A stretch of DNA of 64,000 nucleotides from Naegleria gruberi (taxonomy: Eukaryota). Below are positions 2,132 to 53,037 of this stretch, piece by piece. The position numbers were made by a program, and so were the translations under genes. The first letter of the stretch is position 1. Every line of letters starts with the position of its first letter. The DNA is taken from NCBI GenBank assembly GCA_000004985.1, contig GG738888.1. One strand, given 5' to 3'. The notes below the pieces were generated by a model. It was not told the DNA's origin. It saw only the letters and a program-made list of their open reading frames with translations, and made no database searches.

Positions 2132-4366
2132 TCATCTTCTTCTAATTTCAGAGCTTCTATCATATTCTTCTGGTCCCTCATACTGGGTAATAAAACTAAT
2201 TGTGGACATTAGTTCTTCCTCAGTCAAGCTTTCCTTTGGTAGATTTACAGACATCCATGCTGGAACACCATTTTCACAATTTACCATATGTGCATAATCT
2301 TCTAATTTTTCCTCCCATTGACGAGGTAAAACTTTGGCTATTGATGATACCTTTGAAAGATTTTTCAATAAGAATACCAACAATCTCATATTTGTATCGT
2401 CGTCATAAATTGGTGAGAGGGCAAGGAACGACTCTTGATTGGATGAATTCAATCTCTCACTTAACATGATCTTGCAACATTCCCTCATAATTTCCTTCAT
2501 TTCAAATATATGGCTCATTGAAAGAATGTAAATAAATGTCTGATCACTACACAGCCTTAAATTTGAATAATTACAATTACAAGCTTCTGAAAGAAGAATT
2601 CGAATAGCTTCTATTTTTTCAGTTTCTGCTCCAATTTCCTCACTCTTTACAAATTCAAAAACATCATAAGAAATCCTACTTGATGAATACTTTTCAAAAT
2701 ATACTGCAAGAACTGGACTCGATTTTGTTACTATTTGCTTATTGACCTGAATTTCAGTTCCCTTATCATCAATTATTAGAGTACAATCATAATTATGCTG
2801 TGAACACAACAGAATAGCATCTGACAATGAAAAAACTTGTGTGAAAATCTCTTCATTCCATGTCACTTCTATTGATTGAAATGATTGTTTGGATTCTTCA
2901 ATTCTTGAGGAAAGTTTAAGTAATTTTTCATCAGCTCCGTGAAGATATCGAACTTGAGTATAATTACTCTTAATAAAGGCAATGCATTTCTTTACAAGTA
3001 GCATGAGAATTGAATTGTGAGAATTTTTAAGAACCTTTCTCGACAAATAATCAGAAATTTGGTCAATTATTTGCATGACATTTTCTACTTGAATGAAAGT
3101 AGACAGTTTGGAAAATATGGTCTCTTTCAAATCAATTCCACAATCTCGAACATCATTCAATAAAAATAAAAATAATGTCAAACTCTTGATATCATCAAAG
3201 TACTTGGAGAGAAAGTTATCTTCATGAAAAATGTCAATACAAGACTGTTTCCCAGAATTAATATAAGGAATCACTTCACAAATGTATATGATTAATTCTC
3301 TAGATAATACCAGCTCATCACGTGAGAGACCTTTGATCAATTTTTCATTTTTGAACACTTTACAAAGGTCTGGTGAAATAATTTCAATGAGTGGAAAGTA
3401 AACTTGAAGATATGGTTCGTCCTCAATTTCCTCATTGATAACCACTAAATTATGTAGCAAGGATTTTGCATGATAATCAATTGTTGTTTTCTGGTTGGAA
3501 TATGTAACTGCAACTGTACATAAAGGGCCTACAAACACATCCAATTCCAAACTATTGTCAAAATCTAAATAGAGCCGTTCGAAATTGTCATCACCAACTG
3601 CCTCATGTGAAATAAAGTGATTTTGTGCAGTACTCCCAATTCCAAGTTTTCCAAATTGATTACTTCCAAACGATGTCAAGTATTTGTCAAAATGTAAATT
3701 GACTAAATGAGTTTCAGATGCCTCTACTTTGATTATCTTTGAATTAACACTGTTGAAATGTACAGATCCATAACAATGCTCATAGAAGAAATGAGGTAAA
3801 CTACTCCCAGACAAAGTAATCATGCCATACTTTTTCTCATACTTGTACTTCATTGATCCCCTATTAAAGTAAAAAGCAGGTTCTTCATTTCCCTTTGGTT
3901 GAGTACAATCAACAAAACCTGTCGATTTCACTCTAAAAGACTTGTATTTTGCAATTGCAAAAGGTGTATCTCCAATAATTGTCACTTTTTCCAATCCAAG
4001 TTTCAACCCGTCAAGTTTAAAAACTCTTCCATCATAGTACCAAGAAACAATTCCATCAAAATCCAAGAAAATTGAACATTGATAACCTAGAGCACAATGT
4101 CTAATACCCTTCTTGAAGATGGGCACTGGAAATCGTTTCATCTGACGATCTTGGGGTTGTAACAACTCTCCGAACGAATTCAATCCACACCCGAGAACTT
4201 GTCCCATTTGTGATCTGATGAGAACATTGTTATATTTCATTTCAACTTGAACAATTTCATCATCTGGATGATCAAGTAGATATTGAAAAAAAGGCACGGG
4301 TTGCAATGTATTTTCGTTTTGGTTAATGAAGGGAGTGAAGAAACCCTTGCCAACTCCGTATAACAT
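2132..4366 (-). CDS. RCC1-like repeat protein, possibly with C-terminal BTB-like region
   Basis: Long ORF; probable ATG at 4366 (MLYGVGKGFF; track start 4390 is TTG). N-terminal RCC1-type motifs (VLGCGLNSFGELLQP, SFGSNQFGKLGIGS); remainder unassigned. Confidence 0.4.
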   Translation of the reverse strand: MLYGVGKGFFTPFINQNENTLQPVPFFQYLLDHPDDEIVQVEMKYNNVLIRSQMGQVLGCGLNSFGELLQPQDRQMKRFPVPIFKKGIRHCALGYQCSIFLDFDGIVSWYYDGRVFKLDGLKLGLEKVTIIGDTPFAIAKYKSFRVKSTGFVDCTQPKGNEEPAFYFNRGSMKYKYEKKYGMITLSGSSLPHFFYEHCYGSVHFNSVNSKIIKVEASETHLVNLHFDKYLTSFGSNQFGKLGIGSTAQNHFISHEAVGDDNFERLYLDFDNSLELDVFVGPLCTVAVTYSNQKTTIDYHAKSLLHNLVVINEEIEDEPYLQVYFPLIEIISPDLCKVFKNEKLIKGLSRDELVLSRELIIYICEVIPYINSGKQSCIDIFHEDNFLSKYFDDIKSLTLFLFLLNDVRDCGIDLKETIFSKLSTFIQVENVMQIIDQISDYLSRKVLKNSHNSILMLLVKKCIAFIKSNYTQVRYLHGADEKLLKLSSRIEESKQSFQSIEVTWNEEIFTQVFSLSDAILLCSQHNYDCTLIIDDKGTEIQVNKQIVTKSSPVLAVYFEKYSSSRISYDVFEFVKSEEIGAETEKIEAIRILLSEACNCNYSNLRLCSDQTFIYILSMSHIFEMKEIMRECCKIMLSERLNSSNQESFLALSPIYDDDTNMRLLVFLLKNLSKVSSIAKVLPRQWEEKLEDYAHMVNCENGVPAWMSVNLPKESLTEEELMSTISFITQYEGPEEYDRSSEIRRR

Positions 4367-4669
4367 TTTTTTTACATTAATGTTTTTCAAAGTTCCACTC
4401 TACGTCAGTTTTGATAAATTGTACCCACAATCTTCAAATGAAAAAAAAAGACTACAGCACCACAGGTTCCCAAGTTGTCTCCAACCTCAGTACTGATGTG
4501 GCTCGACGATGCTTAACTTCTCAAATCGGACGGGATGAGGTGCATTCATCGTGATATGGCCGTAGCCATAAACAATAGAAAAATCTTAATCATAAATAAT
4601 ACAATGTTAGGCTATAAAGCCAAATAGTTTTTTATTATGCTTTGTATTTGTTTCAAGAACAATTGAGAG

Positions 4670-5216
4670 TTAACACTTTTCAATCCATTTGGAAACAAAT
4701 TGACGATATTGTTCAGCAGTTTCTTCCAATTCTTCAACTGATTTCTTATTGGCACGATAAGTAATGAATGGTTCGCTCCATTCCAATTTACATCTGTGAG
4801 CGAGAGCTTTCAATGGATTCAACAAGTCATCGAGTGGAATCAAATTCTGACCCTCTGGAGTGTATGCCTCTTCAAAATTACCAGCTGTTACAGAAATCAA
4901 TAATGGTTTGCCCTCCAATTTCAATCCTTCCTCTCCATAACGAATATAGTACATTCTTGTGAATGTTTCATCAATCCATTGTTTCATGAAAGCTGGCATT
5001 GAGTACCATTGGATTGGAAATTGGAAGATAATTCTGTCTGCATTCAAAAGTTCTTTGGACATCAGAATTGGAATCAAACTTTTTACCATTCTCAGTAAAT
5101 AATTGATGCATGTTGATAATTTCAATATTGTCAAGAGTTGACAAGGCCTTGATCATTGAACGATTGGCTTGAGAGCTTTCAAATCTTTCGTGGAAGAAGA
5201 GGACAAGAGTAGACAT
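4670..5216 (-). CDS. flavodoxin-fold NAD(P)H:quinone oxidoreductase (KefF/MdaB/NQO-type), reading frame interrupted
   Basis: Track ORFs 4971..5216 and 4670..5134 in different frames together align along the KefF family (HQLF..., RIIFQFPIQWYSMPAFMKQWIDETF, LISVTAGNFEEAY). Removing one base from the T5 run at ~5080-5084 (plus strand) fuses them into one ~180-aa ORF. Confidence 0.55.
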
Positions 5217-5440: not shown

Positions 5441-7264
5441 CTAAAACCTTCTGGTCTTTGGTACGGTAATGAAAAGTTTTGCAGCACTGAAATCTGCTTT
5501 GAGTAAGCTTTCTCTATTGATGGTATAAACAAATTGTGCATCGAATGGCATACCTGGATAATTAGCATTGGTTGACAAAAGAATAATATCATCCTTGTCA
5601 GTCTGTAAATCATTTCTAAAGGTTGCTGTGTATTGTCCACAAATGGTACCAATATATGATGGACAATTGGAAGTATGATTGAAATATTCATAATCTTCAA
5701 ATTCTTTTTTGGAATCAGCAAATACTCTTGTATCTAATGAGAGACCTAATTTCAAAGATGAATTTGCAAATTTAGTAATGGTTAATTCGTCTATTTCAAT
5801 TCCAGTAACCAATGGAACGGTTGAATTATCTTGGTAATCTTGATAAATAACATAACCATCATAAGAATCAATATTTGGTACGGAAGCATTGATTTGAAAA
5901 CTATCAATCTTGGCAAAAAAGTATAAATATCCAGATTTTGGTAATTGGCAATCAATGAATGAGCTTATTTCAGAAAAATCAATTTGTCCAATAAAAGCAT
6001 ATCTCTTTTTCCAAAGTTTGGATTTGTCAATCATGTTGGGATTTCCTCCAATCTTGGTTCTACGCCCATCGGTGGGGATTGAGGAATTGAATATGAAAAT
6101 TTCCCGATAAAAGTTAACAGATAATGAAACGGACTGTTTTAAAATCTCCCTGAAACTATTGTCACATGAATCCGTTCTCATTTTGCTTTCAACTAGTGAA
6201 TCTCTGCTACTAATATATGGATATATATCCGAAAAGAATTTGTTTTTCCATCCTTTCGAATCAAAGTTTCTAATATCTGAAAGAGTTCTACTGGTTCCAA
6301 ATGTTAAAAATAAAGGATCTTCAATCTTAGTCAAATGATAGCAATACTTCCAAATATCATCATTTTCAACAATTAAACTATTCCAATACTTGCAAACTGT
6401 TCTCATTTTCAAAAGGTCATCAACATTTCCCACAAATTTCAAAATATTTGAATGAACATCTGGTGAGATGGATGAAAAAAATGGACCTTCTCTAATTGAA
6501 ACTTGAGAAGAATCAGTATGTTGATTGAACAAATTATTAACAAGCACAGAAAGTACATTAGAAATTGAACAAATACTACTTGGAAGAGATTCAAGTAGTT
6601 CAGAATCATATTTGATAGCATTTTCAATGGCAGGTTGACCAACTGAAAAGCAAGAACAATCTCGTGTGTAATTTGAAGCAAGTTCAACAATTTCTCCCAT
6701 GACATAGCATACTATTATTTTCAAACCAACAGCAAGGACCTTCTCTTGTTTTTCAATTTGCTTTAAACTTGACAAGTTAACATTGAAATATAGAGCAATA
6801 AATCTCTCTACAGATTTTCCCTCTTCCGACTCATCTTCCATCACCTTTTCAATTGGTAAAAGAGTAGTCATTGGATATTCACCCAACCTTCCTTTCAAAT
6901 TCTTTCTACAGATTTCCATGATTAAATCATGAATATCTTGACAATGTTCCTGACTATCCATTGCATTTTCATTAGTAAAGCCATCAAGTAATTGTTTAAT
7001 GGCTTCGGAAGAATCTGTTCTCTTCAATAGTACATATGGCTTTAAATCATCAATTAATTTCAACAATAAAACCAAACCAATGGAGGCTAGAGTTTTATGA
7101 CCATGACAAGACATGAACATGTCATTATTGTGGCCAGTAGTGGGTGGAAAGTAATAGTGCTCGGCTAGATTTTTGATTAACTGATCGGCATTGAATATGG
7201 ATTGAAAAGAGGTGAGTGAACAAAAATTGATCACTGTTTGTGGAGGCTCTGTACGTGATGTTGC
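5441..7264 (-). CDS. F-box-like domain protein with C-terminal DUF1963 (YwqG-like) domain
   Basis: Single long ORF. Mid-protein F-box-like stretch (ILKFVGNVDDLLKMRTVCKYWNSLI). C-terminal GGNPNM...YLYFFAKIDSF...DGYVIYQD resembles bacterial YwqG/DUF1963 (family name from memory). Confidence 0.5.
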   Translation of the reverse strand, partial: ATSRTEPPQTVINFCSLTSFQSIFNADQLIKNLAEHYYFPPTTGHNNDMFMSCHGHKTLASIGLVLLLKLIDDLKPYVLLKRTDSSEAIKQLLDGFTNENAMDSQEHCQDIHDLIMEICRKNLKGRLGEYPMTTLLPIEKVMEDESEEGKSVERFIALYFNVNLSSLKQIEKQEKVLAVGLKIIVCYVMGEIVELASNYTRDCSCFSVGQPAIENAIKYDSELLESLPSSICSISNVLSVLVNNLFNQHTDSSQVSIREGPFFSSISPDVHSNILKFVGNVDDLLKMRTVCKYWNSLIVENDDIWKYCYHLTKIEDPLFLTFGTSRTLSDIRNFDSKGWKNKFFSDIYPYISSRDSLVESKMRTDSCDNSFREILKQSVSLSVNFYREIFIFNSSIPTDGRRTKIGGNPNMIDKSKLWKKRYAFIGQIDFSEISSFIDCQLPKSGYLYFFAKIDSFQINASVPNIDSYDGYVIYQDYQDNSTVPLVTGIEIDELTITKFANSSLKLGLSLDTRVFADSKKEFEDYEYFNHTSNCPSYIGTICGQYTATFRNDLQTDKDDIILLSTNANYPGMPFDAQFVYTINRESLLKADFSAAKLFITVPKTRRF

Positions 7265-7331
7265 CATTTTTTTTAATTTCACAATTTTCTGGAATATTTT
7301 TTCTGAGAGATTGTTACAAATAGTAAACTAT

Positions 7332-8646
7332 TTACTTGGAATAAACAACACTTCCGTTCATGATAACAGCAGAAATTGGAGGATCACACAATTCATAAAT
7401 GATATGTTCCCAATTCTTAGAGTCAACAATGACACAATCACCAACCTTTCCAACAGCCAAACTACCATGGGTTGCAGACTTTCCAATAGATGCAGCAGCA
7501 TTCAAAGTACAAGCAACAAGAGCTTCATTCAATGTCATTCTCATATTCACACAACTCAAATGCATAACAAATGGAAGTGACATACAGTGAGCATTTGGAT
7601 TGTAATCAGTTGACAAAACAACTGGAACTCCATTGTCAATCATTTTTCTTGCAGGTGGATAAGCAATTCTTAAAATATAGGCAGTTGTTGGTAAGAGAGA
7701 TGCACAAATATTCTTCTCTGCCATCAATTCAATTCCCTTATCACTCACATGTTCACAATGACTAACAGCCAATGCATCTAATTCATGAGCTAGTTCAGCA
7801 CTTCCCATTGGATTCAATTCATCTCCGTGGAAGTTGATTCCAAGTCCTAATTGTTCCTTTCCTGCTTTGAGAACTTGTCTTGTTTCTTCAGTTTCAAAAA
7901 CTCCCTTCTCATGGAAAACATCAATCAAAGTTGGACCAATTTCATCCTTTTCAATCATTTTAGCAAGGGCAGGAACTTGTTCTTCAAGAATTTGCTTGGT
8001 ATAAGCTTGCAAATTGGAATCTTTTGGAACTGAATGTCCTCCAAGATAATTACTAACAATTTCAGGAATTCCCAATTCGATATGCTTCTTATTGGCTCTA
8101 TGCAAAACCTTCAACATTTTAATTTCAGTTTCAGTTTCCAAACCATAACCAGATTTTCCTTCAATCAATGTAGAACCATTCTTCAACATGGTCTTACATC
8201 TCTTTACCAATAAATCCAACAATTCATCTTCACTCGATTCACGTGTATGTCTAACAGTAAATCCAATTCCTCCTCCCATCTTGTGAATATCCATATAAGT
8301 AGCTCCTTGCAATTTTAACACAAATTCATGACAACGATCACCACTCCAAACAGGATGAGTATGACTATCAACCAATCCTGGAATGACACTCTTTCCCGAG
8401 CAGTCAATTTCTTGTTCAAACAATTTTCCATTATTTTCATCACCATGATGATATCATGAATCCAATTCTTTAATTCCGCTTCATTTCCAATAAATACAAT
8501 TTTACCATCATGACCAATAATCATGGCCCCGGACCCTCCTTGAATAATCTCCAACTCGTTTTGTTCCTTTCCTTTTAATAATTTCTTGGAGGCATCTCGG
8601 GAAATGCAACAATTTGCTCTGCATTCTTGAGGAGTGTTTTATACAT
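7332..8646 (-). CDS. hutI: imidazolonepropionase (HutI, EC 3.5.2.7), ORF interrupted by two apparent 1-nt frameshifts
   Basis: Main ORF 7332..8423 has DSHTHP metal site and aligns full-length to HutI. Upstream ORF 8315..8554 encodes the N-terminal beta-strand region (GKIVFIGNEAEL). True ATG at 8646 (MYKTLLKNAEQIVAF, A-rich context) is in a third frame. Adding one base near 8599-8601 and one A to the A4 run at ~8424-8427 restores one ORF of ~437 aa. Confidence 0.7.
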
Positions 8647-16717: not shown

Positions 16718-17683
16718 TTAAAATAATGCCTTGTAAACATTCATTAAAAACTCTTGATCAAATAAAATCATTTCAACATTGAATTTCATCCAATCTACAT
16801 CAAACTTTCGTTTGGCAGCTCTAATCACAAGTTTCAAAACAATTTCTCTATCCTCCACAATATCCTCACCAAGATAATCTATTTTTTCCACAATCTTGAA
16901 TAATTTCTCATAGGGCTGGTCAAGTGCAAAGAGTACAGTTTCCTTACTATTCCTAAATAGAGAAGCAGCAAATTTTAGAGCATATCCATTCGATTTGATG
17001 GCCTCCATTACAATATTGTTGTCGTAGGAGCAATCACTATTCAATAATCTGAGATTCAAACCATCTCTCCGCACATATTCCAATAATTCTTCCAAAGTTG
17101 TTTCCTGAGATAGTATAAAATCACAGGGAGAGTATGGGCTATCAAGGAGTGAACATCTTTTCTTAGATGGAGAATTGAGAAATTCATGGATAGAATCCAC
17201 CTCCACATATAGCTTTCGTTTGTGAGATGGTATAAACTTAATAGAATCACTATTTTGCTTCAAGGCTTCTGAAATTACGTCATCATTCATTAATTCATCA
17301 GGTACATGCTTGATTACAAATCCATTCACTTTAACAGCATCCATCACAAATGATTTGTCCTGAAATAGTTTTGTCATTAATCGACAAGATTCCAAATTTT
17401 TCACACTTTCCAAAGCAATTTCCCTATCCAAATGAAACTTTTTCTGAAACCAATGTAAACAACTATTATTGACCATCAATGATCTCTTCACAAATTCTCT
17501 ATCATTCTGTAACTTTTTCGAAGCAAACGTAACAGCAAAATGATAATTTCGAATAGCTGCCAACATGATCTCCCAATCATTCCTAAAATTCATCGTTAAC
17601 TTCTTCACATCATTCGCAGTAAGAGTTTTATATTGCAATAATAGTTGCAATACTAATTCCCTTGAGATGTAACCACCTCCCAT
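16718..17683 (-). CDS. DUF4116-type repeat protein (KxDREvvLxAv repeats)
   Basis: 321-aa ORF with repeated ~30-aa units (FRNDWEIMLAAI, LQNDREFVKRSL, LHLDREIALESV). Upstream same-strand ORF 17653..17985 in another frame may be its 5' part via a frameshift. Confidence 0.45.
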   Translation of the reverse strand: MGGGYISRELVLQLLLQYKTLTANDVKKLTMNFRNDWEIMLAAIRNYHFAVTFASKKLQNDREFVKRSLMVNNSCLHWFQKKFHLDREIALESVKNLESCRLMTKLFQDKSFVMDAVKVNGFVIKHVPDELMNDDVISEALKQNSDSIKFIPSHKRKLYVEVDSIHEFLNSPSKKRCSLLDSPYSPCDFILSQETTLEELLEYVRRDGLNLRLLNSDCSYDNNIVMEAIKSNGYALKFAASLFRNSKETVLFALDQPYEKLFKIVEKIDYLGEDIVEDREIVLKLVIRAAKRKFDVDWMKFNVEMILFDQEFLMNVYKALF

Positions 17684-19330: not shown

Positions 19331-22300
19331 TTATTTGTTGAGTAATTCCTCAAATGCCATCAATTTCTGAGTAATTTCTGAGAAATTGGGTCTATTGCTA
19401 GGAGAGGAATCCCAACAATATTTAACCAATTGAATAAAGGAGAAGACTATTTCGTATTTTGATTTCTCGTTTCCTAAATATTCTTCACACCACTCTTTAC
19501 ATGACAGCAAAGTGGAAAATGGAATAATTGGACGAATTCCTCGAGAAACCAATGCAGGTACCTTGAAACTATTATTCTCTACCTTCTTGTATTCTGAAGT
19601 TTCGTATTCAATTTCTCTGAATAACTTCTTTCTATTCTTTTCTTGATAAATATAAGGATTCTCTTCAAAGAAAATTTCCCAACAAATTATTGCAAAACTG
19701 TAAACATCTGAAGCTGTCGCTGTGTCTGTGGTCATTGAGTTTCCATTCTCTTCGAAATGCATATAAAATAAAGTTCCCAAGTTATTGGTCAGGTTTGTGT
19801 TTTTAGTGAGAGCTCGAGAAAGTCCAAAATCAGCAACTTTACACTTATTGGAATTATCCATTAAAACATTTCCTGGTTTCAAGTCTCTGAATATAGTTAT
19901 TTTGGTTATTTCAATATGGATGTTAAAACTTACCTGTGAATAATGGGAGGTTTCAGTGAATGTAAATAATCCATTCCTTTTGAAATATCCAACAAGATTG
20001 AAATTTTATCCGAAAGCTTAATGTTCGGCAAGCTTCCAATTCTCAATTGATATAAGAAACTTTCCAAAGATCCTTTCGTCATGAATTCCATCACAATCAA
20101 ATAATATCCCTGTAAAAATGAAACTCCATATATAGTAATAATATTTGGATGTTTCAAATTGTGCAATAAAGTTACTTCCTTTAAAAATGATTCCAATTCT
20201 TCCACTTTCTTTACGGCAACTTGATTTTGCTTCCACTTAGCTTTGTAAACTTCACCTCCCGATCCAGATCCGAGTTTCTTCTCAAATTCTAAATCCTTAT
20301 AAGGTATAAATATTTTAGATTCTGTTATAGATTTGATTCCAACAGCCACAGCACTTTCGGATGAATTATTATTAGCTGTATTTCCTGAACTAGACATGTT
20401 TAATGAACTACTTATCGATGCAGGATCACTAAACTCATCCAATTCTCTATAATCACCCAATGAAGGTCTTAATAAATGGAATGGAGAATCTTGACCTTCC
20501 AAATGTTCAGCAGTTAATGACATTTCCATTAGTTTCCTATGAACTTCTTTTTCTTGAGTATTCTTTCGATTCCATCTTCTTGAATTGTAACAGTAAATAA
20601 CACAACAACCAATAGTAGCAACACACATTACAAAAGAAATTGGAACACTCACTGTAATTCCAATAATCCAACCTGTTTCAGATTGTGAACCCAAATCCGT
20701 ACCCGTACTTCTATCTTGGCAATGTTGTCCCTTGTATCCTGATATACACTTGCAATTATCTTTGCCTAAACAGGTCCCATTTCCATGATTACAAACAGAT
20801 GAGTCATTGAATGGAATACCATTACAGGTAAATAATTCACAAAATTGTCCTAAAAAACCAGAGTTGCATTTGCAAACATTAGGCGAAAAACAGACACCTT
20901 GAGAGTTACAGACATTGGTTTTGTTTGCTGAGATTTCATTACATTTAGGGAATTCACATTGAGAACCTGTGTAGTCGGTATCGCATAGGCATGTATCTTT
21001 GGTTATACATTTTCCATGCCCATAACAAACATTGGATGCGTCAGAGGAAAGTTCAAAACATGTTGTAAATTGGCATCTTTCTCCAAAAAAACCAAAATTA
21101 CATTCACATGTATCTGGTGCCAAACATGATCCGTATCCAGAGCAAACTGATCTATTATTCGAAAGTGTTCCAAAACAAATTGGAATGGAACAATCAGAAC
21201 CTCCGTATTTGGAATTACAAACGCAAAGGTTAGGCTCAACACAAGTACCATTAAGATTATTACAGACATTTGAATTATTAGATGGAATTCCAAAGCAAAC
21301 TGGTTGTTCACAATCCAATCCTACAAACTTTCCATTTTCACAGGAACAATAGTCTGGTTTCGTACAATTTCCTTTGCTATTGCAAACTGCTGATTCGTTA
21401 GCACCAATACCATAACATATCGCATATTGACATGATGGCCCTTGATAACCTTGTGAACAATTACATGAATCAAAACCAATACATTGCCCATGACCACTGC
21501 AAACCAATGGAGAATCTGATCCATAGTTGAAGCATTTCCAATGTTCACATTGTAAACCAGATCTTCCAGGATAACATTGACAAGTATTTGGAGATGTACA
21601 ACTTCCATTAGAATTGGTACAAACTGACTCATTAAGAGCTGAAATATTATAACACAACGGAATCTGACATTCCAATCCTTCATAATTTTCTTCACAATTA
21701 CAGATATTGGGTAATATACACTTTCCATTTCCAGAGCAAACTAAACTTCCATTATTCATGATAATTGAAGAATTATTATCTATCTTTCCAAAGCAAACAG
21801 GATATTGGCACTCATTTCCTTTCCAACCAGTTTCACATTCACAATTGTCAGCTTGACTACAATTTCCATGTCCATTGCAAATTAAGGAACTGTTGTATGC
21901 CAAACTCTTTCCAAAGCAAATTGGGTATTGGCATTCGTTTCCTGTAAAACCAGATGGACAGTCACAAATATTTGGTGAAATGCAATTTCCAGTTCCAGAA
22001 CACACTAAACTGTCATCTGCACGCTTTCCAAAACAAATAGGATATTCACAATATTGTCCTGTAAATCCTGTTGGGCATTCACAAAGTCCTGGTTGAGTGC
22101 AATTTCCCACTCCTGAACAAACTCTTGTATCATTGGATACGAAATCACCACACACTGGGAATTGACAATTTGGATAACCCCAACCAGGATTACATTCACA
22201 TTCATTAGTATAGATACAGACACCATGAGAACTACACACAGATGAATCGTTGGAACTAATGCCGAAACAAAATGTAAATGGATACATGAATGGTATTTCG

Positions 22301-23826
22301 AATAATGTGAAGGCATAGTGATCTTGATGGAATGTGTAATTTGAAATTGATTCTGTAAAATAACCGTCTGTGGTTATCAATACATTGACACTCTTTGTAT
22401 CTTCATGCCTTTGCAAAGCCATTGAACTGTAATTTCCATACATGATATATGAAACTTGCCATTCTCCCTTTCTATAATTGGTAATCGATCTTACATTCAC
22501 CTTATACTCCACTTTATTCCTTCCTAACATATCTTTATAGAGACATCTCATTGCAAGGTACAAATCTTTTGAAATTCCTGAAATACTGTAAACTTGAACT
22601 CTTTCACAAGGTCTGTCAAAATTTTCCGCATGATTCATCTCTGAATTGTAGGAAGAATAATATTTGAGTTTCTTATCGTCTAATAAGGTTATACATGTAA
22701 ATGATTTCAACCCTTCATTGTCCATACATGATGTAACAAATTGGTCATTTCCTATCTGTTTCGAATATAAATCAACTTTCAAATCAAATCTGTATGAAGT
22801 ATTGGTCCACAAGTCAAGGATATTTCCACTTGTATCGAATTTAAGAATGTAAAATGAATGAAAATCAACATTGACATTGTCTATGATTGTGAAATTCTTT
22901 TGTTTTCTATCGAGCCAAGTTGTTGTACCGCTATAGTATCCACTCAGATACATTGTGGTATTTGAAATGGTTGCTTGATAGATCCTAACATAGGCAGTAG
23001 AATTGGTATTGTGTGTTTGGAAAGTCCACAATGGTTCCATTTCATAACTGTTCGATTTTCGACGAAATGCTTGGACAAAAGAATTCGAAACCAATTCGTT
23101 ATTTGCATTTGCATCTCTGTAAACCTTAAAAGATCCGTAAGAAAGGTAGGTATCTTCTTTTCCTCTTCCAGAAACATAAACTTCATCTCCTTTGACTAAA
23201 ACACTGAAAGGATTGTAACAATCTTTCGAATAGCAAAGATATTGAGTGTTCCATTGAAGTGTGCCATCATCAAGTGAAAATACAAAGAAAAGAGGACCTC
23301 CTGGTTGAGAAAATGGATGAATCTTGTTTGAAAGTGGCACATAGGCTGAAAGAAATACAAAAGCATATTTTTGATAATCAGAGGAAACTCCAACATCATA
23401 AAACTTGCAATCGTTTGTCTCACAATCTATTGAATATTGCCACAATATCGTTCCATCTGATTCGTTTAGTTTGATTACAAACAATGATTCCCTTGTGAGT
23501 GAATAGGGTGAAGTATTAAGAAATGAGGCACTTGGTTCAGTTTCGTTGGCTTTCGTCCCATTCACAAACTGATCTTCTACATTGACATTTGGATATAAAT
23601 ACAAATTCTCAGTAAATGTTCCACCCACTACCAAGTGTCCACTAGTAGTTGCAGTAAAACATTGGACACGAGCATCCTTTCCAGTCTTTGACGTGAGGAA
23701 CCAATTAATTTTGTGTGGTTGAAGATTTACAGAGGTTTCATGAGAGAAGGACGAGAAAAACACAAGAAACAGAAGAGTGATGAAGAATGACTTGTCGATG
23801 AAGGTGGATTTTGTCTCTAGATTCAT
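19331..23826 (-). CDS. receptor-like protein kinase: signal peptide, N-terminal globular region, ~16 EGF-like Cys repeats, TM helix, TKL-type kinase domain; 2 exons
   Basis: Exon1 23826..19934 (ATG MNLETKST... with A-rich context and signal peptide; track ORF starts earlier at 23889). Intron 19933..19887 (GTAAGT..TTCAG, 47 nt) splits the catalytic loop HR|DLKPGN. Exon2 19886..19331. Repeats of CxCxxG[WF]xGxxC[EQ][YF]P[IV]C; TM GWIIGITVSVPISFVMCVATIGCCVIYCY; kinase motifs VAVKK, HRDLKPGN, DFGLSR. Confidence 0.7.
19887..19933 (-). other. spliceosomal intron (47 nt, GTAAGT...TTCAG) in EGF-repeat receptor kinase
   Basis: Restores HR|DLKPGN catalytic loop; phase 2 (Arg codon ag|a). Confidence 0.75.
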
Positions 23827-23991
23827 TTTTTTTGTTTGTGCGTTGAATATTGAATGTTGAGTTGTTGTCACGGTTTTGTGGTGCAGCAACCTTGAAATGG
23901 AAGGAGCAGAAATTGCTAATATAGAAGTTATGGTTTAGTTGGTAGAATTAGTAAGTTAGACTGAATTAGTTTATAAATACAAACTTTTAAA

Positions 23992-28760: not shown

Positions 28761-31700
28761 ATGGAGCAAAACCTAAAGAGAAGTCATGATGACATGGTTG
28801 AGAATGAGCAGAGATCTACTACCTTGTCCTCTGTTGATGCTAGTGTTCAAGAACCGGAAAGGAAAAAGATAAAAGCTAACAATGTTGAAGAACTTGTGGA
28901 GGAGACTAAATATTGGTATCATATTATTGCTAGTTTGGATAATGGTCCAGTTAATTATAAGAGTTTTGATCAATTAGAGAAGGGGCTCACAGATAGGGAA
29001 AAAGTGATTGAAAATATCAATCAATTATGGCATGTTCACAAAGCTAGATTGATTTTGGAAAGTTTGGATTTGTCCAATCCATATTGGAATGAAGATTGGT
29101 TCGAATTAACAAACAATGTTGGTGAATTACCAGATACTGAATATGAAGATGTCAAACTAAAAGATAAGGTTACAGCAGAGGAATTGGGACTAACAAGTGA
29201 AATATCCAAAGATCTACTCAAGGAATATATTAGTAAGAGAGAGGATATTGAATCACACAGCTTATTCTTGGTAGAAAAGCTGTTCAAGAAATGTTTGGTT
29301 CAATCTGTTGAAGAAATCACAGAAATGATAGACAAATGTATTGAAATAGATGAAAAGAATGTTGAGGTTTACTTTAGACAATTAATGGATTCAGATCTGC
29401 CTTATGATATGAGCTCCAGAAAGACAATTCTTGATCAATGGAGCAAGTACATTTTACCACAAATTGTGAAAACTCAAAATGAGTTGAATATGATAGATGA
29501 TCCAGTTAGTTTGTCAACAAACGAAGAATCCAAAACAGTTAGCAAGTTTGTACTTGAAAATGATAGTGAAGATACTGACGCCTTCTTACTGGAGACAATG
29601 CTCTTTGGAGATGAGGAACACATTAAAATAGTCAAGCAAGATGAAAAAGATGATGAAGAGGATTTCAACGATGATTACGTCCCTGATATCTTTTACTGCT
29701 CATATTTATTTGACATGGAGCTTCCTGACGAGAAGGGAAAAATAGGATCAAACTTTTTAGGATTATTGCATTGTGAGCACAACAATTCTAACGAAAACAT
29801 CTACCTTAAAATTATAGAAATTGTGATGAAAATGCATATGATTGGTGTTGCTCCTCAAGAACACCAGGAAATTGAGGTATCAGAATTGAGATTGGCAGTC
29901 TCTTTAATGATTTTGGATTGTCTTAACAAGGAGTTGACTTATTTGATTCTATCTCAGAGTAAAGAATCCACATACATGCTTTATAGACCATTAGTGAGAG
30001 CAATCCTTGACCAATTTATTGTTGACTATTGTAACCCAACCAAGTATGACAAGTATATGTTTGTGATATGCACAAATCCTGACATCCAACCAATGATAAA
30101 TGTCATGTTTGAAGAAGAGTCTGTAGTAGACACTGATAATTTAACATGGGATGTTGTGCAAACTCAAAGAGGTTCATGTTTAGATGAGGAAGAAGAAAAT
30201 AATGACGTACAACAATCAGTAAAAGAAAAACATCCTATTTGGGAGAGTACTGTCGACAAATTGAAGGAAAAATACTTTACACACCAAACAGAGGCACATT
30301 CTAAAATAAGTAGACAGAATTTGGATGATTCAATGTATATTACCTATTATACAGATAGAGACAATGCTATTAGTGAACCATTATCAAATCAAAATTTGGT
30401 TTCCTTTTACAGATATGTAAGTTTTCAAATATTCAAAATCTCTAAAACTTTTTAAAGGATTTTTTCGATTACAGTGAAGAACCATTTACCTATGAACAAA
30501 CAGCTGATAATCTGATTGAAAATAGATCAATAGATTGTTATTACAAGAATGATAAATCTCTACATCTGGATTTAACAAGATTATTGAGAAGAGGTGGTGT
30601 TGCATCATTTGATGAAGGACTACTTCTTGAGGCATATAGTACTTTGAAGAATTATATTTCACTCAGCTTGCAAACTCTTGAAGATATTTCTGAAGATGGC
30701 ATTGTTGAAGTAGATCATGTGGAAAAAGTTGCCAAACTACTGGCTATAAAAGGCGGTACTAATGGAAGAGAGTACATTCGTCTAGAACTTCCATACTATT
30801 ACAAACTAGACTATCAACAAGATACTCCAGTTGCAAAAGAGCTGGATGATGTCAGAGATTTAGAAGAAGATTTATTGAGAGGTACCGAAATTGTTGAACT
30901 TGAACCAGTTAGTGCTAGTACCAATCAAGAAATACCAGAGGGTTTAGGAAAGGATCTCTACAATGCTTTAAATAATGAACAATTTAGTTCATTGTGTGAT
31001 AGTTTTATTCAAACTGAGGATGGTGCCAAGGTTGGAGTTTTTACTCCAATCATTAAAGATAGATTACCAGAGTTTTATAGTCAATACTTTGATAGCGAAG
31101 AAAAGAGAAAGAACGGCCTTTGCATAACATCAGTACATTTTGAAGTTCAGGAGGGAGAACAATTAATCTTTGATGAAGTGGTTATCACCAAATGGTTGAC
31201 TTGCATTTATACTGGTATATTTGAAATCGAGTCTTCAGAAGAAGAGAAAAATATATTAACAATTGAGAAGTTATTGGCCAAATGGGTTCCAAGAGAAGAA
31301 GTCTCTTTGAAAGAACCAAAACATGAAACGCAACCACCACAAGCAACTGCTATAATGATAGACGAAAATGAGGAGGAGGATTCAGAAGAAGAATCAAGTG
31401 AGGAAGATTCAGAAGAAGAAAGCCAAGCTTATCAAGAAGAATCTGATTCAGACTCGGAAGAAGGCATATATAATTATAGTGATGAAGAAGAAGAATCCAT
31501 ATATTACAAAAAAATTAAAGAAGAAGAGGAAAAAACATTTAAATGTGAACCACTTTCTAGACTATTTCTTGATGAAGAAGGAAAGGATTTCTCTCTGGTT
31601 GTGAATAGCCATATAGTTAAAGTTCACAAGTACATTCTTAGCATTAGAAGCTCTTATTTCAAAGTACTATTTTTAGGAAATTTCTCTGACAAGAACATTT

Positions 31701-32332
31701 CAGAATATGATGTTTCAGATTTCTTAAAGAATCCACATTCGTTGGACTTGTTCGTCTACTTTTTGTACCACGACACGTTGGAGAATGAAAACTTTACACT
31801 AGAACATTATAAGTATCAAAATTTGATTGATTTGGAAGAATTTTCGCAATTTGTATTGTCTGAAAGATTGAAATCAGAATGCGTCTCGAAACTTATTAGC
31901 CATTCAACTTTGGAACAAACAGTTGAAATGTTAAGAACAAGTTTAGAAGCAAACAAGGAAGAAGTTTTCAACATTGCACATACCATCCTCCTCAAAACTC
32001 AATATCCATACTTTAATGGCACTATAATTGATGATGTCACCACTCAATACTATCAAGTTATGTGCACTTCTTTAACATTGGAAAACTCTCTTGTAAAATT
32101 GGACTATCTCAACAAGATTGAACAAACAACCACAGCCTTACATCCATTCATACTCAATCAAATCAAATCCCAAATAGAAAACCTTCACTGGTTCATTGCC
32201 AACCGAGCTTCATCTCTCGATAACAAATTTATCCGAACTTTACCTCAACCTGTTCAAGAGTTAATCTCTCGCTTCTTCACGCATGATAATTTGGGCATGG
32301 CAAGTTTTGAGGAGGTAACTATTGAAGAATAA
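28761..32332 (+). CDS. large acidic hypothetical protein (composite of ORFs 28761..30455 and 30584..32332)
   Basis: Downstream ORF has no ATG for ~250 codons and its frame is open back to 30446, so it must be 3' to the upstream ORF (ATG 28761 in cacaaaaaaaATGg context). Two junction models, each needing a single 1-nt correction. One is a canonical 58-nt intron 30417..30474 (GTAAGT...TTACAG) that leaves a 1-nt phase error. The other is read-through with one extra T in the T5 run 30449-30453. Glu/Asp/Ser-rich stretches; no family assigned. Confidence 0.4.
30417..30474 (+). other. putative spliceosomal intron (58 nt, GTAAGT...TTACAG) with 1-nt phase discrepancy
   Basis: Canonical donor, pyrimidine-rich 3' end and AG; as written, splicing gives an immediate TGA. 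Confidence 0.35.
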
Positions 32333-34284: not shown

Positions 34285-36342
34285 TTAATGATGATTTCCC
34301 ATTGTTAATGAATAATTCTTATTGAGTATCTTATTTGTGGTTGTATACATTTCAAAGCTTACCAAAGGGGAAGTAATGAATGGCAATAGATTCCTTCCTG
34401 CCTCTCCCTTCTCCAACACTTTAAATCTCAAATTTTCCATGGCTAGACTTGCCAAAAATGGTTCATTGGTGTTAAATTTTCCCAATCTCAATGTCATGTA
34501 AATGCATTTCATGTTATATCGACAAGATTCCAATAAAAATTCTTCATCTATGAATGGTGCTTTTGCTGCAAGTCCCAATACATTCACGTTAATGTCATGC
34601 AGTTTCAATGTTTCTCTTACAATGTCCTTATCCAATTTGTCAGGACAATCAGGGAGAGTATATCCATCGTATTTGACAACTTGTAACATGAAGCTTTTAT
34701 CAGCTTTCAATTCATCAGCAAGATAGTAGAAACAAAAATGTTTCGTTTTGGAAATTAGTTTGAGCATGAATTCCTTGTCTTTTGCTAGGTGTTTGAATTT
34801 TCTCGACTGTAATAAACTAGGTTGCTTTCTAATCATTAACTCAATGACATCAGGATCATCACTTAAACTACTATACTTGTCTAGGACAGAAATGGAATTA
34901 CTGGCTGCTAGTAAAATTAAATCTCTTTCGTTTTTCAAACCTTTGGACGCGTGGAAAATGGATTGACCATCTTGTTGAACTGCAATTGAAACTACCTCTC
35001 TGTCATTCTTGAGTTCAGCAGAAACATGTTTGAGAATTTCAGGATTGAATTTTAAGGCTTTCATTACAAAAGTTTTGTCAGATTTCAATTCTGAAGTTTT
35101 GATAATGTCAGCACTTTCTCTGATAGCTTGAATCATGATATCTTGATCAGTTTTCAATTCGTTTCGTATGAGAGAGAAAACCTTATTTGGTTTGACAATT
35201 TTTAACAATCTCAAAACGAAACTCTTATTCTGTTTCAACTCGTGTGGAATCTTGTCGAGCATTTTAGGAAATCTAGAAATGGCAGCAATGGAAACATCAT
35301 GATCTCTCTTCACTTCTTCAAAGGCCAATTCATAGGTATTATTGGAGGGATCACATTGTTGAATGGCATCCAGGAAGAACCTCTTATTCTTTTTCAAATC
35401 ATCAGTTAAATATTTGAGAATTGTTGTCTTTTTCTCTGAAATGAGATATTGTAAAATGACTCTTCCATCAGTTTTGAATTTTTCAGGAACCTTTAAATGT
35501 AAATTATTGAGATTATATGCATTTCTGGTAAATTCCAAATCATTTTGCATTGTTTCCTCTATTATTGTTGAATATGGACAGCATCCATGTTTAAATCCTT
35601 CTAATATAATGTAGGGATCCTTCTTTAATTCTGGAGATAATCTATTGAATAGATCTTTTGCACTTTCCAAATTAGGAGACCTCTTTCCCATAATTTTAAA
35701 AGTAAAAAGTGCAAATTCTCTATCATTAAAGAACTGAGATGGTATATGTATGAAAAGTTCAGGTAAATGAGATGAACGTTCGACTGCTTGATAAATTACA
35801 TCTCTATCATTTCTAAAAGTATCAGAAACTGACTCATAGATACAAACATTATTTCGAATACTATCCAAAATGAACTGTTTCTCCTTTAGAAAATGGTCTG
35901 GAATTCCAGCAAATAATTTTCCAAAACGCAACAAATGCAAAACCACATCCCTATCATTCTTCAACTCATCTGACAAGTACGGAAAACACTGTTCATGATG
36001 CACATTAGCAAGTACCAACTCCTTATTTGCTCTCCATTCCAGTGGTACTTTCGATATTGTTAAATCTCCCATGACCAAAGGTATTTTACAACCCCAATAT
36101 TTTCTTCCCTTATTACGTCTGACTAGAATGTTGATGAGATGAGTGTCTTTCAAAATGACATGTCCAAAATGTTCAATCATGATTGAATACTCTTCCGAGC
36201 TGAATGTTTTAAATAGAAAGGAATCGAATTGAAATTTAGTTTTTAACAAATGGGAAGATGGTGTAGAGTCGAGTAGAATTTTCACACAAGCACCGGGAAG
36301 TGAATTTTCAAGTTTTGGCAGCATTATCAAGAGTTGACTCAT
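34285..36342 (-). CDS. DUF4116-type repeat protein (685 aa, >15 tandem KxDR[ED]vvLxAv units)
   Basis: Single ORF with ATG at 36342; repeats such as LKNDRDVVLHLL, FRNDRDVIYQAV, LKTDQDIMIQAI, LKNDREVVSIAVQQDGQS, LKNERDLILLAAS. Confidence 0.55.
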   Translation of the reverse strand: MSQLLIMLPKLENSLPGACVKILLDSTPSSHLLKTKFQFDSFLFKTFSSEEYSIMIEHFGHVILKDTHLINILVRRNKGRKYWGCKIPLVMGDLTISKVPLEWRANKELVLANVHHEQCFPYLSDELKNDRDVVLHLLRFGKLFAGIPDHFLKEKQFILDSIRNNVCIYESVSDTFRNDRDVIYQAVERSSHLPELFIHIPSQFFNDREFALFTFKIMGKRSPNLESAKDLFNRLSPELKKDPYIILEGFKHGCCPYSTIIEETMQNDLEFTRNAYNLNNLHLKVPEKFKTDGRVILQYLISEKKTTILKYLTDDLKKNKRFFLDAIQQCDPSNNTYELAFEEVKRDHDVSIAAISRFPKMLDKIPHELKQNKSFVLRLLKIVKPNKVFSLIRNELKTDQDIMIQAIRESADIIKTSELKSDKTFVMKALKFNPEILKHVSAELKNDREVVSIAVQQDGQSIFHASKGLKNERDLILLAASNSISVLDKYSSLSDDPDVIELMIRKQPSLLQSRKFKHLAKDKEFMLKLISKTKHFCFYYLADELKADKSFMLQVVKYDGYTLPDCPDKLDKDIVRETLKLHDINVNVLGLAAKAPFIDEEFLLESCRYNMKCIYMTLRLGKFNTNEPFLASLAMENLRFKVLEKGEAGRNLLPFITSPLVSFEMYTTTNKILNKNYSLTMGNHH

Positions 36343-37492: not shown

Positions 37493-40400
37493 CTATTGAC
37501 CTTCAATAATGAGTCTCGATTTTAGAGAGCTCAAAATGGTGCTTATTATGGTAAATGATGGACGTTGTTTTGGATCAGAATTCCAACATTGTGTCATTAA
37601 CTTGATGAACTCTCCAACAATATTTCTAAATCTTTCCTTGCATTGGTCTCGATCGAGTGGAACATCACTACTAGAAAAATCATACTCTTGCACATAGGAG
37701 CTCAAATAGGAATCCATTTCTGTATCATTGCTGAAGGGAATAACTGGTCGTTCTCCTTTTAGAACTCTTGGTAGCACTGTGAAGGGAGAAACTTCATTCT
37801 GTCTCGCTTGTGTAATCTTGGTGTTTTTTGTGTGAATGTATGGATTCTCCTCAAAGAATAATTCATACATGATGATCGCAAAACTGAAAACATCAATGGA
37901 TGGAGCTAGGGTGGAACTTGTATGAGATAGTTCAGAATCTAAAAGTTCTGGAGCTATATAGAATAAAGTGCCCATTCCTGTTGTGGTGTTTGTTTGGTTA
38001 TTACCATTCATTAGTCTACTCAATCCAAAATCGCAAACTTTTGCAGTATTATTCGAATCTAGAAGAATGTTTCCAGGTTTTAAATCTCTGTGAATAATTG
38101 GTGGTTTCAGACTGTGCAAATATTCCATTCCACATGCAACATCAATCAGAAGTGATAATTTAGAAATCAAGTCTAGAGAAATCTCACCCTTCCTACATTG
38201 ACTTATTAAATTCTCAATACTTCCCTTCTCCAAATACTCAACCACAAGATAGTGTTTTTTCGGAGTGATTGAAATTCCATAAAACATTAAAACGTTTGGA
38301 TGACGTAATTTGCACAATAGAGATGCCTCCTTTTCAATGTCATCTCTCAATGCATAATTTTCCACATCAACTCTTAAACATTTGATTGCAACAGTATTGT
38401 GATCCCAACGACCTTTAAAAACTACTCCAGATCCACCCTCTCCAATCTTCTTTTCTATAAACAGCTTATCCAATGTAATTATAAAAACAGCACCACTCTT
38501 TGAAGAACTATCATCACTATTTCTGAGATCTTCCTGTGCATCCACAATGTCATTTTCCAATAATCTCTTTTCAATGTCCTTTTCAGCACGTTCTCTACCC
38601 CTCCAATATCGAATAATTTTAGCTAATTTGTAAACTCCATATCCAACACCTGATAATATAATTAGCAAGCTACAAAATGCGAAAAAGGAAGCTACCACAG
38701 CAACGATAATGATGGACTCATAATTTGGCTTGACCTTACAGATAAATGATGATTCTGAACCATAAGTTGCTGGTGTTGATTCATAATCAACTGGACAAGG
38801 TATAATCTCCAATGGAATATCACTATTCGCATGAAAGAATGAGAGTGTGAGAGATGCCTTAATTGGTTGTGTGAATTGCCTCTCAGAAACTGTAATGAAA
38901 ATTCCCTCCACCACTTCAGAAACTCGTGTCTGTTTGGGAATGGTTGCAGTGATCGAGTCAGTACTCACTGAATTAGAATACACTTCCCACATGTACTCTA
39001 CTGAATTTCCAAAAGTGTCCTTGGATGTCGGTTTCAATGTAAATCTCTGTCCTGGAAAGAGAGTTACCACTCCATTCATTGGTTCAAAATCTCCACTCAA
39101 TTTTCCATTAATTTCTTTAGAGACTTGCCAAGTGATTTGTCTAATTGAGGATCCTATATTTCCACCATAGTTTAGAGCACTATTTCCAGTAAAGTTGCTC
39201 TGCAGAAATTCTTTCTTGACAATTTTGTGGAAGAAAATTCCTCCACCAGAGTAGTCAGCTTGATTATCCGAAATTTCCACATCTTCCCAAAGGCAAGCTA
39301 GAGTATCATATTTCAGGTTGAATGAAATTGCTCCTCCTCTCAATGCTCTGTTCATATGGAATTTGGAGGAATAAATTGCAAACTTGGTATGGAAACCTGT
39401 TCCCGTAAAACTCAAAGCACCTCCATTTCCAAGACATTTCGTTGAGGAGCACATTAAACTGGATGTGATGTTTTCAGTGAGTACTGAATTATTTACAAAG
39501 AGTGTTTCATAGGATGAGAAATTGCCTGAACAGAGTATAGCACCACCACTATTTTTTGCTGTATTTGATCGAAATACTGATTCTCCAATTGCTATATTCG
39601 AATCTATTCCACTAATGGCTCCTCCTCCTGCTGATGAATAATTTTCAATAAACTCTGAAAGGAATACGATGATATCACTCCCATAGGATGAGAGAGCTCC
39701 ACCAGTCTTACCATTTCTGTTTCTAATAAATTTCGAGGAGGTAACCAGAGTTTTGTGAGAGGAAAGTGAGCTGGACAATATAGCTCCTCCCAAGACAGAT
39801 ACGTTATCTGTGAAAGTAGATTCGACAATATAGGTTGCTACTACATTGCTCAACAGTAAAACTCCAGTAGAACCTCTATTATGGGCAAATATGCATCTTC
39901 TCACAATGACATTCCTCGAATTTCTAACAGTGACAATGCTTCCCTCTGTATTTTGACTTCCAACGAATTGACAATCTTGAAATTGGACCTCAATTGATTC
40001 TCCAATTGTTATAATATTTCCATTTGATTTGCCAAATATTGTGTGAGAAATTCTGACAACATTCGAGAAGAGAATATTCAAACTTCCATCATTAATTGTA
40101 CTCGTTTTCGTATTAACCAAGCAACCAATCATCACAATCTCCTTAACTTCCTCTATAAATACCAATTTGTCAATATTTATAGTCCCATTGAGGAACCACA
40201 TATTTGTGGCAGCCAATGTGAACTGATCTAGAAAGAAAGACAACTCAGACTCTGTAAATATCGAAATCTCTTCATATTTAAACTCAACTACAGGTCTCGA
40301 ATCATCAAAATCATATCTAACCTTCTTAAATAATGAAAGATGAGCGTCAGTTTCAAATTGTCCACTAATTTTCGAATTTTGCACAATGACATAATTTCCA

Positions 40401-52948: not shown

Positions 52949-53037
52949 TTTTTTAAAATGAAAAAAAGTAACTTTGGCGGATTTTGTAAGGAAAATAATT
53001 GGCGCCAAAATAAATCGCTCAACTGGATTTATAAAAA

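Follow-up and report, generated by a model that had tools for sequence, protein, structure and literature searches.

The minus strand of a 64,000-nucleotide stretch of Naegleria gruberi contig GG738888.1 (GenBank assembly GCA_000004985.1; hereafter the window, numbered from its first letter) carries a gene for a 608-residue protein that joins, from N- to C-terminus, an H2B-like histone fold, an H2A-like histone fold, an F-box, a helical linker, and a C-terminal domain of the YwqG family (DUF1963) of the TYPP superfamily. We hold this architecture with high confidence. It recurs in a family of at least 15 proteins found in three species of two heterolobosean genera, Naegleria and Willaertia. 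We favor the explanation that the protein is a three-module substrate receptor of an SCF (Skp1-Cul1-Rbx1) ubiquitin ligase, and put the chances of that explanation as a whole at about even. The gene and its modules are as follows.

5441..7267, minus strand: complete coding sequence, 608 codons plus stop, without intron; equals NAEGRDRAFT_71080 plus 49 N-terminal codons
6833..7210, minus strand: H2B-like histone fold, amino acids ~20-145 (family profile; AlphaFold2 [AF2] model, predicted local distance difference test [pLDDT] 70-86)
6572..6826, minus strand: H2A-like histone fold, amino acids 148-232 (family profile, hhalign, Foldseek)
6338..6478, minus strand: F-box, amino acids 264-310, 'ISPDVHSNILKFVGNVDDLLKMRTVCKYWNSLIVENDDIWK' (Pfam PF12937 and PF00646, both above cut-offs)
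6086..6337, minus strand: helical linker from F-box to C-terminal domain, amino acids 311-394 (AF2 helices, no family match)
5465..6085, minus strand: YwqG-type TYPP domain (DUF1963), amino acids 395-601

The original prediction, made from the letters of the window, treated the N-terminal 260 residues as featureless. The family profile and fold search instead identify an H2B-H2A histone-fold doublet there, and this recognition changes what the protein probably does. In the H2B-like half, an alpha1-like helix (23-40) and alpha2 (58-74) are separated by an inserted helix and acidic loop from alpha3-alphaC (111-137), in which 'LKGRLGEY' corresponds to H2B 'LPGELAKH'. The H2A-like half comprises alpha1 (152-161), alpha2-L2 (177-203), where 'YVMGEIVELASNYTRD' corresponds to H2A 'YLTAEILELAGNAARD', and alpha3-alphaC (211-228), where 'AIKYDSELLESL' corresponds to 'AIRNDEELNKLL' of H2A. 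Searched against the PDB, the family profile retrieved single-chain H2B-H2A (scH2B-H2A) chimeras at E=2e-14 and H2A or H2A.Z at ~1e-11 to 1e-9, while a profile of the H2B half retrieved only H2B chains, in two collinear segments (best E=0.001 and 0.0096). Alignment of the family to scH2B-H2A by hhalign gave 97.2% and E=3.3e-11 over window-protein residues 116-230.

Structure prediction returned the same folds. An AF2 model built from the family alignment was best over residues 50-230 (pLDDT 70-86), and the top 17 Foldseek matches of the model in the PDB were scH2B-H2A constructs (E ~2e-4 to 2e-3; target template modelling [TM] score 0.61-0.70), followed by the SOS histone domain 1Q9C (E=2e-3), the Melbournevirus H2B-H2A doublet 7N8N, and YwqG. 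In a viral structure library, the top matches were the Marseillevirus H2B/H2A fusion and Melbournevirus miniH2B-H2A (TM 0.73). The model thus predicts an H2B fold followed by an H2A fold in one polypeptide, paired intramolecularly. The same library also yielded matches at E ~0.006-0.2 to 'uncharacterized' proteins of Klosneuvirinae (Catovirus, Gaeavirus, Yasminevirus, Fadolivirus, Terrestrivirus, Hokovirus, and Klosneuvirus); judged from the models, these could be histone doublets that annotation has missed, in a virus group with Naegleria-infecting members.

Judged by its sequence, the module is histone-derived and not a histone. Its isoelectric point is 5.0 (K+R 21, D+E 32), within a family range of 4.7-6.0, as against 10.35 for human scH2B-H2A, and the H2A DNA contacts R29, R32, R35, R42, K74, K75, and R77 are all replaced. 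The hydrophobic core is retained, as are equivalents of the acidic-patch residues E61, E64, D90, and E92, and some paralogues keep all six patch positions. Since the module is acidic and the DNA-contact arginines are lost, it probably docks proteins rather than wraps DNA. By analogy with the SOS histone domain, this pattern points to a pseudo-dimer shaped like H2A-H2B, with its protein-facing surfaces preserved but without DNA wrapping.

A different explanation would have the doublet replace H2A-H2B in a nucleosome or hexasome and tether an SCF ligase to chromatin, comparable to macroH2A, which carries an extra domain. Both histone folds are indeed complete and the four acidic-patch equivalents kept, some paralogues have a segment, 'G..VLPxI', resembling the H2A docking domain, and viral H2B-H2A doublets form nucleosome-like particles (PMC8357426). 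However, the module is net negative, nearly all arginines and lysines with which H2A loops L1 and L2 contact DNA are lost, the H2B-like fold contains a long insertion, and the window protein lacks a conserved docking-like segment. Given the charge of the module, its assembly with DNA into a nucleosome-like particle appears unlikely, and we regard the incorporation explanation as a whole as highly improbable.

The F-box-like motif that the original prediction placed in the middle of the reading frame was recovered by two Pfam models in the window protein, F-box-like PF12937 (24.8 bits against a gathering cut-off of 24.3, residues 270-308) and F-box PF00646 (21.3 bits against 20.5). F-box-like Pfam matches were present in 16/16 relatives (best 6.6e-11), and on these alignments the F-box can be called secure at the family level. 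The family sequence resembles the pattern of Skp1-binding F-boxes, (L/I)Pxx(I/L)...CKxW...W, with R, C, N, I, W, and K invariant, and the F-box family profile matched Skp1-complexed structures in the PDB (FBXO44, Cdc4, FBXL17, beta-TrCP, Fbw7, and Skp2), with FBXO42 also among its PDB matches. An F-box N-terminal to a protein- or peptide-binding domain is the usual layout of an SCF substrate receptor. On this resemblance, we consider a receptor role in SCF rather likely.

At the C-terminus, the DUF1963 assignment proposed at the outset stood as well. The strings GGNPNM, YLYFFAKIDSF, and DGYVIYQD are present, and PF09234 scored 31.8 bits against a gathering cut-off of 23 over residues 405-596 and profile positions 2-210 of 216. 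DUF1963 matches were found by Pfam in 10/16 relatives (best 3.4e-10). The domain falls in the mainly bacterial YwqG family, as the 'largely bacterial' label of the prediction had it. DUF1963 is another name for the YwqG family, a member of the TYPP superfamily, which also includes Tsr4, PDCD2L, and PDCD2 (Burroughs & Aravind 2014, PMC4275035) and whose domains are predicted binders of peptides or proteins (PMC4275035). The diagnostic features of the first repeat are present in the window protein: GGNP at 407-410, Q428 within 'FIGQIDF', and 'LPKSGYLYFF' at 442-451. Neither the family nor 13 bacterial homologues show any change at Q428, and F425, P443, G446, and F451 are likewise invariant with the bacterial homologues. 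A poorly conserved insert (~485-553) precedes the second repeat, 'DIILLSTN' (560-567). The two-repeat all-beta fold of YwqG (1PV5) was recovered, with YwqG among the Foldseek PDB matches of the model. Bacillus subtilis YwqG and its family are stand-alone proteins of ~200-290 amino acids, whereas the domain forms the C-terminal third of the 608-residue window protein. Tsr4, PDCD2, and PDCD2L are eukaryotic cousins of the window TYPP domain; the window protein had no match to Pfam PDCD2_C at E<=1, so it does not belong to the ribosome-biogenesis branch.

The pairing of F-box and DUF1963 is already in automatic annotation: UniProt names NAEGRDRAFT_71080 'F-box domain-containing protein', with precomputed PF09234 and PF12937. 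A literature search on DUF1963 returned 7 publications, none linking it to an F-box, and one combining Naegleria with F-box and histone terms returned nothing relevant.

In the mechanism that we favor, the F-box would bind Skp1 and so make the protein a substrate receptor of an SCF ligase. The TYPP domain, behind the helical linker, would occupy the place held by WD40 or LRR domains in classical F-box proteins and probably bind an extended or disordered, perhaps basic, substrate peptide, much as Tsr4 and PDCD2 use their TYPP domain to bind the disordered basic N-terminus of ribosomal protein uS5 (PMC7736825). The histone doublet would fold on itself into an H2A-H2B-like pseudo-dimer that does not wrap DNA and would serve as a probable docking surface imitating H2A-H2B, for example for H3-H4, histone-handling factors, or acidic-patch readers. 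Such docking would steer the ligase to chromatin-related clients. This specific division of labor among the modules, including which of them binds substrate, is tentative. More speculative still, and in our judgment doubtful, is that the family is a heterolobosean set of ubiquitin-ligase adaptors built on a natural single-chain H2B-H2A mimic, a decoy or docking platform feeding SCF. Such a mimic would capture endogenous histone-binding clients, for instance free H3-H4, or trap pathogen effectors aimed at host H2A-H2B, for degradation.

Several results weigh against the favored explanation. Both F-box scores of the window protein by itself are marginal, barely past threshold. In the second TYPP repeat the GGxP motif is degenerate, with bacterial 'LLG.P' aligned to 'ICGQY', and the pocket glutamine is Ser565, with bacterial 'LLLQxD' aligned to 'ILLSTN'. 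This glutamine is nearly invariant and lines the conserved TYPP pocket (PMC4275035); it is retained in paralogues P0005, P0015, and P0016. Since the window protein differs from the YwqG family in both features, its ancestral binding pocket may be unused. The full-length AF2 model gives no confident inter-domain geometry (predicted TM score 0.43), and the helices in and near the linker (303-316, 325-334, 340-364, and 370-388) are of mixed confidence. Searched by themselves against PDB sequences, residues 1-263 reached histones only at E=0.06-2, the Marseillevirus doublet being the best of them, and the Pfam Histone model had no match in the window protein and 7 paralogues even at E<=10. The doublet call therefore rests on the family profile and the family-alignment model, the window protein alone being sub-threshold. 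Finally, a second strain (contig L003) carries a frameshifting 40-nt deletion, which leaves a protein of 268 amino acids (P0002) that ends ahead of the F-box, so the gene may be dispensable. The best PDB match of the N-terminal 263 residues, the MarR-type regulator YetL (E=0.0014), was judged spurious, since histones are what both the family profile and the fold search return.

The same weak signal could mean that only the F-box-DUF1963 core matters, as an SCF adaptor with a bacteria-derived substrate module, and that the N-terminus is a decaying histone relic. That core is common to all 16 relatives and the N-terminus is variable, with a BRCT domain in P0015. Moreover, the histone signal is weak or absent in P0016 and P0017, and the N-terminus of the window protein has lost its basic, DNA-binding character. 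On the other hand, the doublet can be aligned over ~230 amino acids across two genera, with invariant or near-invariant E223, L224, G126, Y188, L196, and D221. It is also the most confidently modelled part of the protein, and codons 50-236 show no amino-acid change between strains. A relic would not retain two complete folds in register, and we consider this explanation unlikely.

We recovered the family by an exhaustive single-sequence phmmer search, which returned 16 eukaryotic relatives of the same architecture and no bacterial protein at E<1e-3. Word-indexed searches gave almost no matches, whether the query was the protein or the N-terminal profile, and the exhaustive search was needed to see the family. 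N. gruberi encodes at least six paralogues (71080, 69753, 69196, 71992, 51545, and 50706), N. lovaniensis three members (C9374_009456, C9374_007668, and C9374_009365), and Willaertia magna five (ABK040 loci), and further members lie on metagenome contigs. Pairwise identity within the family is low, at 17-33%; the window protein shares 30% with its nearest relative. Two metagenome members carry other additions: P0015 has an N-terminal BRCT domain (E=5.8e-12) ahead of the F-box-TYPP core, and P0017 ends in 'YSPTSPS' heptads like those of the RNA polymerase II C-terminal domain. Additions to the core thus appear variable and nucleus-related, and a BRCT domain at the position of the doublet hints, weakly and by analogy, at a chromatin or DNA-damage setting.

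The nearest relatives of the TYPP domain outside the family are bacterial. Its profile had 14 matches there, all stand-alone DUF1963 proteins of 156-322 amino acids (best E=1.4e-10). A P0024-like subgroup, comprising 6/14 matches and excluding the best two (P0022 and P0023), was traced to Bacteroidales genomes, with 272 confirmed loci. A bacterial source of the domain is thus plausible on sequence affinity. Of the horizontal acquisition proposed in the original prediction, the bacterial affinity stood; the transfer itself is a possibility, and not a recent one. The fusion is common to N. gruberi, N. lovaniensis, and W. magna, no bacterial protein matched in single-sequence search, identities are at most ~30%, and the guanine-plus-cytosine (GC) content of the gene is similar to that of its surroundings (~33% throughout the window). 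On these comparisons, an acquisition would be old and predate the Naegleria-Willaertia split. Other DUF1963 fusions nearby, for which that prediction had proposed a look, were not found: no further DUF1963, F-box, or histone-like gene came up in the window when the three modules were used as tblastn queries and 20 other large open reading frames (ORFs) were scanned with Pfam.

The histone halves of the family are nearer to eukaryotic H2A/H2A.Z (~1e-11), viral doublets lying outside the top 60 sequence matches, and this affinity favors a cellular fusion. Two IMG/VR scans with family patterns found no viral relative. Because the H2B-then-H2A order is shared with giant viruses, the family may bear on the source or the destination of viral doublets.

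Lineage-specific expansion, together with the low identity among paralogues and orthologues, would also fit a fast-evolving defense family. In that explanation the acidic H2B-H2A mimic is an integrated decoy that baits viral or bacterial effectors aimed at host H2A-H2B, the YwqG domain, a relative of proteins encoded next to bacterial toxins, binds injected toxins, and the F-box sends the catch to the proteasome. Naegleria is prey and host of bacteria and of giant viruses, some of which encode H2B-H2A doublets, and SUKH immunity domains have likewise been recruited behind F-boxes. In addition, an AHH-nuclease toxin gene immediately precedes one of the close bacterial DUF1963 genes. That toxin neighborhood is nevertheless a single case, and the IMG/VR scans found no family member or close relative in viral contigs. 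We consider a decoy role improbable. The bacterial locus in question (L001, 2563-5855 of a 25-kb metagenome contig) holds the DUF1963 gene closest to the family, where an immunity gene would normally sit: it directly follows genes for a 776-aa AHH-nuclease polymorphic toxin and for a Sel1/type IX secretion system-tail protein. We did not take DUF1963 to be a toxin-immunity gene in general, since 10/10 sampled upstream neighbors in Bacteroidales were unrelated (housekeeping or unknown).

The reading frame itself is well supported. The minus strand is open across 5441..7282, with its first ATG at 7265-7267. The original prediction had found this frame and placed its start one codon past that ATG, at 5441-7264 (607 amino acids). 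Stops make up ~7.5% of random codons at the window's composition, from which the chance of 608 stop-free codons was calculated as ~4e-21, so the frame is not a chance product. From Met50 on, the protein is 100% identical to NAEGRDRAFT_71080, whose public model of 559 amino acids starts at that methionine, with its ATG at 7120; the disputed N-terminal stretch is 7118-7267 on the minus strand. L003, a 2.3-kb metagenome contig from a strain 98% identical, shares the upstream neighbor and the ATG at window 7267. In the stretch before Met50 it differs from the window by three in-frame indels and a few substitutions, and this stretch also holds an N-terminal motif of the family, 'SLxDF', as well as the H2B alpha1-like helix. 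Given the shared ATG, the in-frame indels, and this homology, the public model probably starts 49 codons too late.

L003 also bears on the state of the gene through the following feature.

6564-6574 and 6524-6534, minus strand: two 11-bp direct repeats, ATTTGTTCAAT, flanking the 40 nt deleted in L003 (alignment)

The deletion lies between the repeats (L003 2185-2195); it may mark a genuine null allele or stem from faulty assembly. Reading the 40-nt segment as an intron was rejected: no GT...AG is possible in the 11-bp repeat, the segment is too short, and its removal shifts the frame. The truncated copy could be taken to mean that N. gruberi can do without the gene or is losing it as a pseudogene, with no current function. 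The window copy is also among the most divergent members of the family, only 30% identical to its closest relative, and has lost the second-repeat glutamine. The gene is probably live, however: it retains a 608-codon ORF in a genome of 33% GC, and codons 50-236 show 3 synonymous and 0 non-synonymous differences between L003 and the window. The deletion, moreover, was seen in a single metagenome assembly, where an artefact or a private allele could account for it. We regard this explanation as very unlikely.

We compared the favored SCF-receptor reading with known systems. FBXO3/SKIP16 and fungal F-box-SUKH proteins likewise carry a mainly bacterial protein-binding domain C-terminal to the F-box, in the position of the substrate module, and SUKH was inferred to have come from bacteria before its co-option by an E3 subunit (Zhang, Iyer & Aravind 2011, PMC3113570). 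An F-box joined to a bacterial-type recognition domain is therefore a known theme, in which YwqG/TYPP is a new domain. Unlike the F-box-SUKH proteins, the window family has an extra N-terminal histone doublet and is heterolobosean only. The doublets of Marseilleviridae and other giant viruses and the engineered scH2B-H2A constructs, its best structural matches, share the arrangement of one chain with an H2B fold before an H2A fold. The viral doublets are basic, whereas the window module is acidic, lacks DNA contacts, contains the H2B insertion, and continues into an F-box and a TYPP domain. The histone domain of SOS (1Q9C) likewise has tandem histone folds in an N-terminal, intramolecular, non-nucleosomal pseudo-dimer, an arrangement predicted here. 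SOS is an animal Ras guanine nucleotide exchange factor, whereas the window halves keep H2B- and H2A-specific motifs and have an F-box and a TYPP domain as partners.

From the sequences, two features appear new: a cellular eukaryote encodes a fused doublet clearly derived from H2B and H2A, and this doublet forms part of a putative E3 adaptor. A review of viral histones found no fused doublet confirmed among eukaryotic histones (Talbert et al. 2022), so this would, if true, be the first case of fused core histones from a cellular eukaryote. Apart from this family, fused doublets typify giant viruses that infect amoebae. The doublet of the family is multi-copy, conserved, and encoded by an amoeba, lacks DNA-binding charge, and is probably linked to the ubiquitin system. 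If confirmed, it would be a natural counterpart of the single-chain H2B-H2A constructs of structural biologists, a testable case of histone mimicry within an E3 ligase, and a new data point on the origin of viral doublets. The uncharacterised YwqG family, for its part, gains a first eukaryotic context suggesting a role in substrate binding.

RCC1 binds the acidic patch of H2A-H2B, and a protein with RCC1 repeats and a BTB domain is encoded immediately downstream of the gene; this adjacency is probably coincidence. The window is rich in other putative types of ubiquitin-ligase adaptor (2132-4390, minus strand; 30584-32332, plus strand; 51449-53050 and 61358-63787, both minus strand), and elsewhere in it are a BTB protein, an RCC1-repeat protein, and a Kelch-plus-BTB protein. 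The upstream neighbor (7332-8646, minus strand) encodes an imidazolonepropionase-like amidohydrolase, which in L003 is a single uninterrupted gene of 438 amino acids. In the window, single bases are missing at two places (near 8610 and 8452), splitting it into ORFs 8315-8554 and 7332-8423; its apparent intron may thus reflect frameshifts, either assembly errors or real. At 4670-5216, also on the minus strand, a flavodoxin-like-fold gene (NQO-type, PF02525) is split into the overlapping ORFs 4971-5216 and 4670-5134, which could reflect a short intron or a frameshift. Multiple DUF4116 repeats occur in three minus-strand genes (16718-17683, 34285-36342, and 49223-50911), one of which has a C-terminal protein-kinase domain running into the next ORF. 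Two large receptor-like kinases are encoded on the minus strand at 19930-23889 and 37493-41134, one with many EGF/teneurin-type repeats and the other with Chlamydia-PMP-type repeats before the kinase domain.

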